Origin: Candidatus Cloacimonadales bacterium
GTDB lineage: Bacteria; Cloacimonadota; Cloacimonadia; Cloacimonadales; JAFGVF01
Assembly: GCA_963677495.2 (NCBI GenBank)
Contig: CAXXOU010000004.1
Coordinates: 736,001 to 800,000 of the forward strand
Direction of reading: 5' to 3'
Length of the DNA: 64,000 bases
A program made the position numbers. Positions 18,001 through 24,000 of this stretch are shown in pieces; position 1 is the stretch's first letter, and every line of letters starts with the position of its first letter.

Positions 18001-21000
18001 ATCAAAGTTATAGGTGATGTTGTAAGTAGATTGGAGAATATCAAAACATCTTTTCCTGAATTTAATGAACCTGTACAAAGTCTGATAACTGACCAAATAA
18101 ACAAAGATATGGAGAAATAGATGCTAGGTCGTACTAAAAGAATACATTTTGTTGGAATTGGTGGAATCGGTATGAGTGGTATTGCTGAGTTTCTGTTTAA
18201 TCAGGGCTTAGAAATAACAGGCTCAGATATGAGGAAGAGTGAGTTAACCGACCATCTTGAGAGTATTGGTATTAATATTGCTGAGGGGCATGATTCTGAT
18301 CTTCTCTATAATGCTGATGTGGTTGTGAAATCATCAGCTGTAACTGATGATAATCCTGAAATTATGAAGGCTTTAAAATCTCATATTCCTGTTATAAGAA
18401 GAGCCGAAATGCTGGCTGAAATCACAAGAATGAGTATCGGAATTGGTTTAGCCGGTACACATGGCAAAACATCTACTACTTCAATGGTTGGTATGATCCT
18501 GAATGATGCCAAGCTTGATCCAACTATTATCGTAGGTGGAAGAGTTAAAAACTTTGGTTCTAACAACATAATTGGCTCAGGGAAATATATTGTTGTCGAA
18601 GCTGATGAGTATGATCACTCTTTTCTTACTTTATCTCCTATCTTTGCAGGTATCACAAATATTGATGCTGACCATCTAGACTGCTATAAAAGTCTTGATG
18701 ATATTAAAGATGCCTTTGTTGAATATGCAAACAAAGTGCCATTTTTTGGATGTGTAGTAGCATGTCTTGATGATAAAGGTGTTCAGTCTATATTACCGAG
18801 AATCAACAAGCGAGTATTGACTTATGGTTTCTCACGACAAGCTGATCTGCAAGCTGTAAATGTGGAATACAAAAATTTCAAATCATCTTTTGATGTGGTT
18901 TTTAAAGGATATAAACTCGGTCGTGTATCAATGCAAGTGACCGGAAAGCACAATATTCAGAATGCACTTAATGCGATTGGTATTGCCTTGGAACTTGATG
19001 TCCCATTCGAGAGTATTCAATCAGGATTAAGTAATTATAAGGGTGTATTTAGAAGGTTCGAGTACAAAGGTGAAGCAAAGCAGGTTATCGTCTATGACGA
19101 TTATGCACATCATCCAACGGAGATTATTGCTACCCTAGAAGCCTTTAGAGAATCAACTGACAAAAGGATAATACTTCTTTTTCAACCACATCTCTTCTCT
19201 AGAACCAGAGATTTCCATGAGGAGTTTGGACGATCATTCTTCTCTTGTGATGTGCTTTTTGTAGCTCCTATATACCCGGCAAGAGAAGCTCCTATACCTG
19301 GGATCTCCGGTCAATTGATAGCTGATTCAGCGATAAAATCAGGGCATCAACATGTTCATTATATAGAAAATAGTGAAAATATTGAAGCTACGGTTTTAAA
19401 ACACCTTAAAGATGGTGATATTCTTTTAACAATGGGTGCCGGACCTATATGGAGAACTGGTGAGAAAATATTAGAGGAACTTGAAAAATAATGAAGAAGA
19501 AAGTTAGAGGAAATAGCCGATATGTTACCTACATGGTGACAGGCATTCTCCTATTAATTATCATCTTCAATTTTGGTCGCTCATATTTGAGAAAATGGGA
19601 CAAATGTCTTCTTAAAACAGTTGTAATTAAGAATAATGCTGCTATTTCAGAAGAAAAACTTCAAAGTATTATGAGTACATACATTGGGCAAAATCTCTTT
19701 ACAATAAACAAACGTGAGATTAAAGATAAGATTTTAGAGTTTTATAGAATCAAGGAAGTAAAGATAAGTAGAAGGCTATTTGATAAACTTATAATTACAG
19801 TTTATGAGCATAATGGATATGTAAACGTCCTAACTAAGGATAATAAAATCTTTACGCTTAATTCTGATGTTGTTGTTTTAAATGAGTTTAGCTATAATAA
19901 GAATGATGACTATCCATTAATAAGAACGTCTCTACACTCCCGTAACTGTACTCCCGGTGTTGCTGTTACAGATGCTGCAATTTTAGAAATTATCGAATAT
20001 CATAAAAAATTACTTGAAGTTAAACCAGAGATACAAAACTATATCTCTGAATATTATAAAGAAGGAAACGATATTTGTTTCCGAGAAATAAAGTCAGGAA
20101 AGAAAGTTATTATTGACTTAAGGTACTTAGAAGAAAACATTTCAATGTTTTTCTCAATGCTTGAAAGCTTAAGATATGATGAGTATAGTACCTACATATT
20201 TAAATTTAAAGACAAAACTATAAGAAAATAAGCATTACCTTATAGAGGAGTAGCCATGTTAGAATTTGATCAAAAACCTGTATTAAAACACGCTAAACTT
20301 GTTATATTTGGAGTTGGTGGTGCCGGCTGTAATGCAATCAACAATATGATAGATTTTGGATTAGAGGACGTTGAGTACATTGCAACAAACACAGATATTG
20401 CTCATCTCAACATCTCTAAAGCAAAAATAAAGATTCAACTAGGTAAGAAACTTACACAGGGAAGAGGAGCAGGTTCCGATCCTCAGAGAGGACGTGAAGC
20501 TGCAGAAGAGAATTATGAAGACATTAAACATCTAATGGAAGGTGCAGATTTAGTTCTTATTGCTGCTGGTATGGGTGGGGGCACAGGAACAGGAGCAGCA
20601 CCAATAATTGCAAAGATAGCTAAAGAGAAAGAGATTATATCAATAGCAGTTGTGACAACTCCATTCGATGATGAAGGTAAGATCAGAAGAGAGAATGCAA
20701 AAAACGGTTTGCTTGAACTGAGAAACTATGTCGATTCTTACTTGATTGTACCCAATCAGAAGATTTATGAGGCTTATCCTGATGCTCCGGCATTTGAAGC
20801 TTACAAAGAAGCTGACCTTGTGCTTTTCAACTCAGCAAAAGCAATTGCAGATGTTATCAACAAATCCTATGTAATGAATGCAGAGTTATCTGACCTTATT
20901 ACAATCCTTAAAGGAAATGGTAGAGCGTTAATCGGGATTGGAACCGGTGAAGGTGAGAATAGAGCTTCTGATGCTCTTAAGAATGCTATTGAAAATCCAT

Positions 21001-24000
21001 TATTGAATGATGTTACTCTCGAGGACTGTGCTGGTGTCGTATACCAAATACTGGCGGGACAAGATATTCCAACAAGTGATTTACGTTTTATATCAGAAGA
21101 GATTCACAAATTAGCAGGTGATGATGCACATATCATACGTGGAGCTCATTTTGATGAATCAAGTAATGGTAAGATATCATTAACTGTTATTGCTTCAGGT
21201 CTAGTAGATCCTGATGATTTCCTAAGAGAAAATGTACAACAACAGCTTAATCCTCAGCAAAACTTTAATAATCAGGGTTATAACCCAAATAGTAACTCGA
21301 ATCTAAATACTCAATTCAATCCAAATCTTGGATCAAGCTTTAGTAATGATCCGGCTAATCTTGGTTCATATGATTCAGGGACACAAGAGGATGACGATGC
21401 CTCTGCTCATCTTAAAGAGTTGATGAGTGGTATTAGTTTAGCAGGAGATAATGAGGAACCTGAAGAAAAGAAATCCGGTTCTCAACTTAAATCTGAACCT
21501 CTTGACTTTAGTAGACGCTATTAAGCTAATTTGATTTATAGATTTATTAAAGCCCGGGTCTTGCCGGGCTTTTCCATTTTCTCATATTCAATTGATTTAA
21601 ACCACGGAAATTGAACCCTCACTGCTCTATCTTAACTCACAGGAAACACACGGGAATCTCTCGGGACTTTGCCTGCGTAATTCCCGGGAATGGCTCGAGT
21701 TAATCGCGTGTAATTCCCATGAGTTAAGATAGCACAATGAATGAGAAATACATGTGTATTGATTAATAGGAATACCAATTTCAATTTCAATCTGTCGATT
21801 AAGAAAGCAATTCTACATATGCAATCATTAACACTGAATCTATTCACAGATTATTTTATCACATCAATGGCTTACTGCAGTTGTGACATACTATTCGCAT
21901 ACTTGACCACGGGTTAACCAGGGGTAAACCACGGGTTAACCGCGGCTTACGTGGTTTAGGCGTGGTTTATCCCTGGTTTATCCGGGGAAAGACAACATAA
22001 TTGTTCTTTAGTGTCCCTGATTAATTCTTTGATATAAAGTTAACATTCATTACTATCAAAGTACATTTTAAAGAAAATTATGGTACATTGGATATAATAT
22101 ACTTGCCAAAAGAAAATCGGTATTTATTTATTGATAAAACATTTATTGGGAGAGTATGTATGCGATACATTAAGTTCTTGGTCATCCCATTGATGGCTCT
22201 GGTTATTTCTTGTACTCCGGGGTCTGATCCATGGTCAAAAGTTATAACATGCAACCTTAAAGGTAGAGATACAAAGACACTCATTTCAGTTGACGAATCC
22301 AATGAATACTTATCTACAATGTATGTTTCAACCGATACTGTGCTAAATGAGGAGAAAATCTTAGGAGTGAAAATCTGGAATTATGAAATAATTAATCCCA
22401 TTAATGGTTCTATAGAGTATTCATTTACTCCTGATACTGAAGATTTTTATATCTACAACCCCATTCTATCACATTCTCGCACTACTTTGCTTATTGACAA
22501 TCAGAAGTCACTAGTGATGTGTAGCACAACTGCGAATGAAACTACTGTTATTTGTGAAGTTGATTCAACAAACAAGTTTTATCCGTCATTCTCAATTGAT
22601 GATTCAGAAATTCTATACAATACCTCAATAGACACTGTTAGGGTTCTTATGGCATATAATATAAACAATGCAACACATAGAGTCGTATATAAATGCATTG
22701 CAGCTCAGCTAATTCAGGCAAAACAGGTTAATGAATCAAGTTATATCGGATTACTTTATAACTATGCTTCAGGATATGAAATGATTGCTCCTTTGGTACT
22801 ATTTAATGAGCAGGATGGTTCAGTAGAAGTTATTTCAAATGAAGATATTGTGGATTTAACTTTCTCAGCAGAAACCGGATATATTGCATATGTTAGTGAA
22901 GGAAGAGAGCTAGTTGGAATTAATTTGAATACAAGGGAAGAACTCGGAAGGATTGATGTTAACAGAAGAATTTACATGTCTCATCCTGAGTTCAATACTG
23001 ATGGGACTAAACTTGTATATTCAGATTACATTGTTTCTTTCCCTGAAATGATAGGAAAACGAGTATATTGTGATGCAAACTCCCAACCTCATTTTTCTAG
23101 AGACTCATCAAGACTTACTACAACCCTTTCGAATTTTTAACTGAAGTTAGATTTAATAATATTTCATATTTAATGAGAACTAAGTTCAGATACGATTCTT
23201 GCTTAAGTGTCATTCTGTCAAAATTACTTGCCAAGAATTAACAATGTGCAAATAAAGATACAAAGGAGATTACTAATGAAAAGAAAGTATATCGAAGAGC
23301 TTAAAGAGTTTTTAGATCAATCACCTACAGCGTATCAGGCTAGTGGCAATATTATATATGAACTAGAAAAGAACGGATATCAACATCTTGATGAATGCGA
23401 TGAGTGGAAGCTTGAAAAAGGTGGTAAATACTACCTTCAAAGAAACCAATCAGCTGTAGTTGCTTTCATTAATGGAAACACAAAACCTAATGCTAATGGT
23501 TACAAGTTAATCGGTGCACATACTGATAGTCCTGCTCTTAAAATAAAACCATTAACAGAAACAACCGTTAAAGGCACCAGAAAGCTTGGTGTTGAAGTTT
23601 ATGGTGGACCTATCCTTTCAACTTGGCTGGATAGAGAACTTTCAGTAGCCGGTAGAGTTGTAATTAAAGTAGATGACAGCTTTGAATCCAGACTTATAAA
23701 CCTTATCAAACCTATTGGTATTATTCCAAACGCTGCTATTCATATGAATAGAGAAGTTAACTCAGGTTTCAAGTACAATGCTCAAAATCATCTTCCTATT
23801 ATGATGGGAACAGGCTCTGAAAACAATGAAAACTACTTAAAGTGTCTCATTGCTGACCATTTAGATGTCCCGATGGATGATATTCTTGATTATGATCTTT
23901 TCCTTTATGATCCGCAACCTGCCACATTAATTGGTGATGTAGAAGATGGATACATTATCGCAGGCAGACAAGATGATCTGTCTATGTGCCATGCTATTCT

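Follow-up and report, generated by a model that had tools for sequence, protein, structure and literature searches.

In this study, we show that a genus of uncultured, walled, double-membrane Cloacimonadota, whose FtsZ is conserved and whose genomes also lack SepF, lost ftsA in a single deletion on the stem of the genus; that the loss is real we regard as practically certain. Our preferred reading, to which we assign a probability of roughly 60%, is that FtsZ is held to the membrane by a protein not hitherto recognised as an FtsZ anchor, which would bind a remodelled FtsZ tail.

The window, a stretch of 64,000 nucleotides from genome G000 (4 contigs, 99.5% complete), carries an intact dcw cluster (6785..19491, plus strand, as are all window features below), in which NCBIfam and Pfam scans place mraZ, rsmH, ftsL, ftsI, murE-murF, mraY, murD, ftsW (15900-17072), murG and murC; murE and murF are fused, ftsI carries PASTA, and the assignment of ftsL rests on its place in the cluster together with a weak match to DivIC. 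There follow ftsQ (19491..20231; POTRA_1, E 7e-14), a 24-bp spacer with a ribosome-binding site (20232..20255) at the place where relatives have ftsA (about 1.25 kb), and a single-copy ftsZ (20256..21524, 422 aa), which exceeds the TIGR00065 cut-off (332 bits against 295). FtsQ is of normal length, with 246 aa in the window and 246-247 aa across the four genus genomes compared to 225-268 elsewhere, and the window's copy has no fused piece of FtsA. A terminator-like hairpin predicted from folding (21549..21572) marks the end of the operon. In other genomes of the family lpxB comes after ftsZ, and in G000 a homologue with 47% identity lies at C1:371848-372969. Together with the peptidoglycan genes (Mur, MraY, FtsW/I) and with OmpH in a second genus genome, G048, this homologue indicates a walled LPS diderm. 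FtsQ, FtsL, FtsB, FtsW, FtsI and FtsK are present, as are ZapA and DivIVA.

The clean, genus-wide loss described in the earlier note is borne out. In all four genus genomes ftsQ abuts ftsZ, with a gap of 24 bp in G000 and of 26 bp in G048 (one contig, 98% complete), G122 (83%) and G123 (72%), scarcely more than a ribosome-binding site, and ftsA directly precedes ftsZ in all eight other genomes of the family. In G000, an FtsA HMM built from the phylum and run without filters and a six-frame tblastn matched only MreB, PilM and DnaK. Across the phylum, 116 of 121 genomes exceed the TIGR01174 cut-off. Apart from G000 and G048, three genomes fall short: in G061 ftsA is broken up at contig ends, one of its pieces lying immediately ahead of ftsZ, and in G090 and G107 ftsZ is absent as well, so that the locus is unassembled there; this sample thus holds no further FtsA-less lineage. 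The stray ftsA of G123, which had been suspected of being a contaminant, is one: it matches a Bacteroidales contig (L163, 94.7 kb) at 99% identity over 400 residues, and its own contig bears a second, foreign murC, which excludes a relocated native gene. The FtsA-specific SHS2 domain occurs in one of the four genus genomes, solely on that contaminant contig (control, 8 of 14). Searches of metagenomes and of protein sequences contributed one further genus sequence (P0003) and a locus repeating the FtsZ tail of G122, the closest FtsZ outside the genus being ∼50% identical.

Judged from its sequence and modelled fold, the FtsZ of the genus is functional and under strong purifying selection. In the window's copy the GGGTGTG signature is intact, the T7 loop reads NAELSD, with the first Asp changed to Glu as in the family genomes aligned and with the Asn and second Asp kept, and the model superposes on a solved FtsZ with an rmsd of 1.6 Å. 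Between G000 and G048 the ftsZ codons differ by 151 synonymous and 12 nonsynonymous changes, which does not fit a gene lost or decaying, as in MreB-driven, FtsZ-less division. The stem/crown values of the FtsZ core (0.85/0.06) describe a protein that evolved rapidly along the genus stem before becoming frozen; FtsW gave 0.90/0.29, and the controls MurC, MurG, MurD and MraY gave 0.17/0.12, 0.35/0.36, 0.33/0.46 and 0.19/0.13, respectively. Acceleration of the divisome is not confined to this genus: an FtsA-bearing genus, g2, has changes at 21 of 144 conserved FtsZ columns and 13 of 91 conserved FtsW columns, compared to 27 of 119 and 13 of 74 here.

The FtsZ tail consists of short kept motifs set in variable sequence. 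Directly after the core lies a first copy of the motif P-x-[DE]-[FY]-x-[RK] (DPDDFLR, residues 318-324; 21207..21227), followed by an Asn/Gln-rich linker with a conserved YNPN (21228..21404), probably disordered (residues 332-376 at pLDDT <50) and identical in 12 of 59 columns among the four genus sequences; then come a helix, HLKELMSGI (residues 385-393; 21408..21434), and a terminal peptide, EPLDFSRRY (21495..21524), which holds the second copy. Seven of the final 14 columns are identical across the four sequences, and none of the 13 columns of the spacer between the short motifs is. Conserved motifs around a variable spacer are the pattern that binding sites should show. The tail sequences agree with those in the earlier note and now extend to four genus sequences; its wider interpretation stood as regards ftsA, SepF and the contaminant, but its view that a new segment peculiar to the genus took the place of the FtsA-binding peptide is not supported. 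That segment, L..(L/F/I)M.GI, is an ancestral helix motif of the phylum (E-L/I-x-x-I-L/M/F-x-R-I, with Arg changed to Gly in the genus) found in 31 of 43 other tails, and a helix profile, one of whose 21 training windows is mistakenly a canonical peptide, selects it in all four genus tails (p 0.011-0.047). Nor is a long tail peculiar to the genus, since FtsA-bearing G036 has an FtsZ of 435 aa. What is new, as far as the sequences tell, is the doubled P-x-[DE]-[FY]-x-[RK] motif, found in 4 of 4 genus sequences and 0 of 43 other phylum tails; it was defined from these same four related sequences, and its shuffle values are therefore optimistic. EPLDFSRRY aligns in register with DIPAFMRKF and ELPPFLNLL, and a profile test of this register gave no significant match to the canonical peptide (p 0.19).

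The canonical peptide itself (I/L/V-P-x-F/W-L/M/I), which according to the available part of PMC9098913 binds the 2B subdomain of FtsA, occurs in none of three genus genomes and in 31 of 43 others, the exception being family f13. There it is missing from all 12 genomes while FtsA is kept, so that loss of the peptide is not tied to loss of FtsA. Family f13 retains the helix alone, with its E, I, R and I invariant, and its FtsA retains a P-R-x-x-E-I helix. From these sequences and from modelling, the ancestral linker helix looks like an FtsA-binding site. A complex model of the f13 helix with FtsA, in which the runs have at least 95% of contacts in common and the partner has a pLDDT of at least 67, lends weak support: it scored 0.46 compared to 0.00 for the best control. 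It thereby passes a mark that 116 of 157 solved pairs also reach, as do 2 of 215 mismatched ones; of these, only 18 of the solved pairs and both mismatches lie at or below 0.60. A complex of this kind has been solved, so that the pass may reflect memorisation by the model.

The course of events is as follows. With the single deletion of ftsA on the genus stem, the remaining divisome and wall machinery was kept. The FtsZ core, and to a lesser extent FtsW, evolved rapidly on that stem, and FtsZ afterwards passed under strong purifying selection. Each of the two old tail motifs was altered, and a short motif arose in two places. We propose that FtsZ still builds the ring and would be held to the membrane by a protein that binds the doubled motif, the helix without its Arg, or both. 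The last 50 residues of FtsZ carry a net charge of -5 to -7, which argues for a protein partner rather than lipid; an acidic tail that does not seek membranes, along with an unchanged MreB, makes an unrecognised protein tether most likely. The tether may be a membrane protein already resident in the lineage, for instance FtsW, FtsQ or FtsK acting through a cytoplasmic face, or else an orphan protein of the phylum, although we hold this only tentatively; a newly acquired protein is less likely than a resident one and on the whole unlikely. Equally tentative is the idea of a third kind of tether, unrelated to FtsA, SepF and ZipA/EzrA/ZipN, which would read the doubled motif at either end of the linker, FtsW having been retuned to function free of FtsA. 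FtsW, FtsQ, FtsK and FtsB of the genus have basic cytoplasmic ends, which by analogy would allow direct contact with the acidic FtsZ tail as in mycobacteria; FtsA-bearing relatives have such ends too, which are therefore no evidence of a switch.

Conservation of the tail could also reflect filament cross-linking or proteolysis instead of tethering. In one such arrangement the tether would grip the remodelled FtsZ core, and the doubled motif would bind a pocket on FtsZ itself, the first copy on its own molecule and the last on a neighbor, so that filaments are cross-linked. The first copy follows the core directly, within a modelled helix (residues 321-330, pLDDT about 70), and of 80 core positions that are otherwise conserved, 13 differ in each of the three genus sequences compared. 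Yet lineages that keep FtsA show such changes as well (f12, 20 of 85; g3, 9 of 80; f13, 8 of 100), and we consider this arrangement improbable. Still less probable is that FtsZ anchors itself: the tail helix is predicted to be helical and is amphipathic (moment 0.55-0.73), but its flanks carry -3 to -5, compared to a mean of +2.3 for the membrane helices of FtsA (mean moment 0.81; n = 43), and it resembles the phylum helix that co-occurs with FtsA (moment 0.63, charge -2.2). These computed values agree with the earlier view that the helix is not of a membrane-targeting type.

We give little credence to an FtsA, SepF or ZipA-type protein present here in a form too diverged for profiles. Divisome proteins evolve fast in this family, and the ranking of candidates compared G000 with 65% of G048; even so, the most diverged FtsA of the family still scores 201 bits, and the unfiltered HMM found none here. 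As had been claimed, SepF is missing (PF04472 in 0 of 121 phylum genomes; control, 7 of 14), also from the yggT-divIVA locus, where no SepF-like gene was seen, as are ZipA (PF04354) and EzrA (PF06160), each in 0 of 5 genomes, and MinC over cut-off; the ARC6/ZipN domain (PF13355), ZapD and FtsX likewise gave 0 of 5, and the scans for ZipA, EzrA and ARC6/ZipN did detect their controls. A weak MinC_C match (E about 0.001-0.002), seen only in G000 and G048, falls on a 420-aa protein, FapA-like by eye, found in all 12 family genomes. GpsB-like binding by DivIVA was likewise rejected: of what we take to be the features of such binding, S-R-x-x-R occurs in one of four tails, and the N-terminal acidic pocket residues are not kept in G000 or G048. 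The screen for a tether in G000 against that 65% of G048, with gene calls covering 81% of G000, yielded none; it comprised 232 small conserved proteins, 198 of them Pfam-scanned (the other 34 already scanned or recognisable by eye), and 80 proteins that have membrane spans or an amphipathic helix at a terminus, 30 of which were scanned. Two candidates showed no link to FtsZ: a coiled-coil protein of 95 aa encoded near yggT-divIVA, which has a membrane span at its C terminus, lacks a Pfam match and occurs in all 12 family genomes, and an orphan of 151 aa (G000:C2:334270-334725), which has a membrane helix at its N terminus and occurs in 102 of 121 phylum genomes. The latter, the best small membrane-linked orphan and the one candidate whose structure was modelled, resembles KH-II/BolA-type folds (best match a zinc-transporter C-terminal domain; Z 8.2, rmsd 2.7, 76 aligned), with no SepF entry among the 50 matches listed, which does not prove that its fold is a different one.

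It is very doubtful that a resident actin-fold protein has taken over the role of FtsA. MreB and PilM are both present and share the fold of FtsA, but across 145 conserved columns MreB has 2 changes specific to the genus, and its branch is not long, giving no sign of co-option, and PilM sits within a pilus-type operon. Finally, a relocated ftsA hidden in assembly gaps, which the four contigs of G000 and the incompleteness of G122 and G123 might suggest, is scarcely credible given the near-complete G000, the single-contig G048 without any match, the junction of the same kind in all four genomes, and the independent signs in the tail and core of FtsZ.

To our knowledge, FtsA is taken to be universal in Gracilicutes, both as FtsZ anchor and as divisome switch, and we know of no well-studied FtsA-less FtsZ system that does not use SepF. 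A genus without either, and with FtsZ conserved, amounts to an experiment by nature on the minimal divisome, which raises the questions of what holds the ring and what turns on FtsWI without FtsA. The phylum supplies matched controls, namely, lineages with both tail motifs, with the helix only (f13), with the terminal peptide only (g2 and g3), and without FtsA, so that the binding rules of the tail can be tested culture-free with peptides and purified proteins. If a third kind of tether were true, a walled diderm would here have a divisome that is naturally free of both FtsA and SepF.

Several known systems resemble this one in part. In Actinobacteria, FtsZ also works without FtsA; there SepF, absent from this genus, is essential, and mycobacteria have a direct FtsZ-FtsW contact. 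With the canonical FtsA divisome of the E. coli type the genus shares the dcw order up to ftsQ, a single ftsZ, FtsQLB, FtsWI, FtsK and ZapA, but it lacks FtsA and ZipA and has a remodelled FtsA-binding peptide. According to the available part of Pende et al. (2021; PMC8178401), Gracilicutes other than Fusobacteria all possess FtsA alone. Supplementary Data 2 of that paper lists FtsZ with neither anchor in 10 of 362 rows, including Silvanigrella aquatica, Sulfurihydrogenibium sp. YO3AOP1 and Coriobacteriaceae 68-1-3; these rows show the same tabulated pattern, but they are single genomes, 7 of the 10 being uncultured drafts by name, and are uncommented in the part of the paper available. Cyanobacteria, as far as the accessible text of PMC8871954 goes, are likewise double-membraned, without ftsA and with an ftsQ-ftsZ doublet; they use SepF and ZipN/Ftn2, neither of which was found here, and their dcw genes are dispersed, whereas the cluster is intact in this genus. 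Chlamydiota and Planctomycetota, from what can be seen of PMC8871954 and PMC12283558, are also walled diderms without ftsA; there ftsZ was lost along with ftsA, whereas in this genus it is kept and is under strong purifying selection.

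The window carries a complete dcw (division and cell-wall) cluster whose 3' end reads murC-ftsQ-ftsZ, with ftsQ at 19491-20231 and ftsZ at 20256-21524. As the earlier note proposed, ftsQ directly precedes ftsZ and ftsA is cleanly gone throughout the genus Zophobacter: the two genes are separated by 24 bp here and by 26 bp in the other genus genomes (G048, G122, and G123), and ftsA lies directly 5' of ftsZ in 8/8 other genomes of the family. When FtsA was sought in G000, the source genome of the window, with an unfiltered HMM made from 44 FtsA sequences and with six-frame tblastn, only MreB, PilM, and DnaK were returned. 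The FtsA profile TIGR01174 exceeds its cutoff in 116 of 121 phylum genomes; the misses are G000, G048, and three that we attribute to assembly gaps, since G090 and G107 lack ftsZ too and in G061 ftsA is interrupted by contig ends, one fragment lying immediately 5' of ftsZ. The lengths of FtsQ (246 to 247 aa) and of the FtsZ N terminus are normal, which means that neither carries a fused fragment of FtsA. These data show that ftsA was removed in one clean deletion. The SHS2_FTSA domain occurs in one of four genus genomes (control, 8/14), its sole match being a stray protein of G123 already suspected to be a contaminant. This suspicion was correct: the protein shares 99% identity across 400 residues with a 94.7-kb Bacteroidales contig (and 88% with two further contigs), and its own contig bears a second murC that has just 35% identity to the G000 gene, against 84% for the native murC of G123, which together rule out a native gene.

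The FtsQ N terminus (window 19491-19523) bears a cytoplasmic motif, R-G-N-S-R-Y/F, kept in 4/4 genus genomes and common to several FtsA-bearing families; its retention in an FtsA-less genus indicates that its partner is not FtsA alone. The murE-murF fusion (window 10701-13475; 924 aa) is shared with most phylum loci examined, and fusions of this type have been described (PMC10214165). A 350-aa ORF 3' of ftsZ (window 22088-23140) has no match in Pfam or NCBIfam and a distant paralogue at G000:C4:310542-311072; a different gene follows ftsZ in G048 and G122. Mur genes, FtsWI, and an lpxB homologue in G000 support a cell predicted to be walled and LPS bearing.

The FtsZ tail has been remodeled. 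The motif P-x-[DE]-[FY]-x-[RK] occurs twice per tail, once immediately following the core and once at the extreme C terminus, in 4/4 genus sequences, in none of 43 other phylum tails, and as single copies in 4 of 116 other homologues. Two copies arose in at most 1 of 10,000 shuffles, an optimistic value because the motif was defined from the same sequences. Judged by sequence, the doubled motif is new in the genus. Its short tail motifs are conserved and the spacers between them are not. At the end of the tail, EPLDFSRRY lines up in register with DIPAFMRKF; the Phe, one basic residue, and the aromatic are retained, although significance was not reached in a profile test (p 0.19). The tail segment that the earlier note considered new to the genus proved older: 31/43 other phylum tails (a nonrandom sample made up of the family, the 30 genomes with the highest FtsA scores, and five chosen by hand) contain the helix E-L/I-x-x-I-L/M/F-x-R-I in their distal part, a looser pattern occurs in 39/47 further homologues resembling those of family f3, and a helix profile trained outside the family finds its best match in this segment in 4/4 genus tails, 39 to 40 residues from the end (p 0.011 to 0.047). 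The helix Arg is replaced by Gly in 4/4 genus sequences.

What this helix may do is suggested by another family, f13 (loci L001, L002, L004, L005, L007, L011-L013, L015, L016, L018, and L021), in which it is present in 12/12 tails, with E, I, R, and I invariant, and the canonical terminal peptide in 0/12 (the tail of G040 being cut at the locus edge). Family f13 keeps a high-scoring FtsA, including the P-R-x-x-E-I helix that we take to be the FtsZ-binding site. When the complex of G022 FtsA and its helix-only tail was modeled, the score was 0.46 (best control, 0.00), with runs agreeing in ≥95% of contacts and partner pLDDT ≥67; this is weak support. The mark is passed by 116/157 solved complexes and 2/215 mismatched pairs, but passes at ≤0.60 comprise only 18 of the solved complexes and both mismatches. 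An FtsA-FtsZ peptide complex has reportedly been solved, so the predictor may owe the pass to memory of that structure. We consider the helix a probable second FtsA-binding site, whose key Arg is lost in the genus, and f13 probably has a noncanonical FtsA-binding mode; loss of the canonical peptide across an FtsA-bearing family merits separate study. Genus g3 has an FtsA on a very long branch (L038/L047, G085; 201 bits, end branch 1.9) and an FtsZ tail without the helix, which may point to relaxed selection on FtsA in this lineage.

We propose, with a probability of about 0.6, that a protein not recognized as an anchor binds the remodeled tail and so holds FtsZ at the membrane. This tether would more likely have been in the lineage already than be a new arrival, and FtsW would have been retuned to fire without FtsA. 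A comparison of G000 with 65% of G048, in which small conserved proteins and those spanning the membrane once or twice were screened, identified no partner of FtsZ. Two orphans, both without a Pfam match or a visible link to FtsZ, were noted: a 95-aa protein downstream of a yggT-divIVA cluster (G000:C1:205238-205525; L291), with an N-terminal amphipathic stretch, a coiled coil, and a C-terminal membrane span, in 12/12 family genomes; and a 151-aa protein (G000:C2:334270-334725; L342:1501-1953), with an N-terminal membrane helix, a KH-II/BolA-like domain, and a Cys/acid-rich tail, in 102/121 phylum genomes and without named relatives outside the phylum.

In 13-taxon trees, the FtsZ core has a genus stem of 0.85 and a crown depth of 0.06, compared with 0.90/0.29 for FtsW, 0.91/0.45 for FtsQ, 0.17/0.12 for MurC, 0.35/0.36 for MurG, 0.33/0.46 for MurD, and 0.19/0.13 for MraY. 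This burst followed by stasis is particular to the genus; the acceleration should not be overread, because divisomes have evolved fast in two FtsA-bearing genera as well, g2 and g3 (FtsW stem, 0.74). They are not its direct sisters in a four-gene tree in which the genus is monophyletic (100) and deeper nodes are weakly supported. Conserved FtsZ columns are changed at 27/119 positions in the genus, 21/144 in g2, and 4/130 in f3. FtsZ is active and retuned: its core differs between G000 and G048 by 151 synonymous and 12 nonsynonymous codons, and its structure model matches solved FtsZ at an rmsd of 1.6 Å. In the T7 loop (window 20877-20894), Glu replaces the first catalytic-loop Asp, both in the genus and in the four other family genomes compared; two f2 genomes have Ser in place of the loop Asn. 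FtsW (window 15900-17072) carries 13 genus-specific changes at conserved columns, including Y359W within the family signature and P275S, 5 residues before an Asp that we presume to be catalytic; these changes are candidates for FtsA-independent activation.

It is unlikely that the tether instead grips the remodeled FtsZ core and that the doubled motif cross-links filaments. Self-anchoring of FtsZ is less probable still. The genus tail helix has a moment of 0.55 to 0.73 and a flanking charge of -3 to -5; the corresponding values for the membrane helices of FtsA (n = 43) are 0.81 and +2.3, which makes lipid binding by the tail helix unlikely. A very diverged known anchor has slightly poorer prospects. 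The reported lack of SepF is borne out, with SepF in 0/121 phylum genomes (control, 7/14), and in domain scans of G000, G048, G044, G085, and G029 we found (i) ZipA_C, EzrA, ARC6/ZipN, and ZapD in 0/5 each; (ii) FtsX_ECD in 0/5, FtsA bearing or not (control, 7/14); (iii) no MinC_C above cutoff; (iv) ZapA in 4/5; and (v) FtsK, FtsB, DivIVA, and a SPOR protein in 5/5 each, the last apparently exported and not clearly FtsN. A 420-aa protein (G000:C2:214375-215628; L332) that matches MinC_C weakly and fits no NCBIfam family occurs in 12/12 family genomes. MreB or PilM, both returned by the FtsA searches, is a still fainter prospect as tether; of 145 conserved MreB columns, 2 carry genus-specific changes, and the MreB branch is not long. 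An artifactual absence of ftsA is barely credible, with G048 98% complete in one contig and G000 99.5% complete.

According to the accessible text of Pende 2021 (PMC8178401), FtsA is the only anchor in all Gracilicutes except Fusobacteria, and FtsA-less Actinobacteria and Cyanobacteria rely on SepF. Supplementary file 4 of that study has FtsZ without either anchor in 10/362 rows, including three for named isolates, which gives the pattern a putative precedent; the three Cloacimonetes in that table all have FtsA. The portions available of the genus-naming paper (PMC8542988) contain no mention of cell division beyond the title of a cited work, and those of PMC9871819 do not discuss the FtsA loss; library searches turned up no account of such a loss in Cloacimonadota, although supplements of a 2022 Nature Microbiology dcw survey and bioRxiv preprints could list cases. 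In excerpts of PMC9098913, the FtsZ peptide contacts the FtsA 2B subdomain. Cyanobacteria, as described in part of PMC8871954, share the ftsQ-ftsZ doublet without ftsA, whereas Chlamydiae and Planctomycetes, in sections of PMC8871954 and PMC12283558, have lost ftsZ as well, unlike the genus. The genus as a whole is a real exception to a near-universal rule, with coevolving FtsZ changes; its system works like an FtsZ divisome and can be assigned neither to the FtsA type nor to that of SepF.
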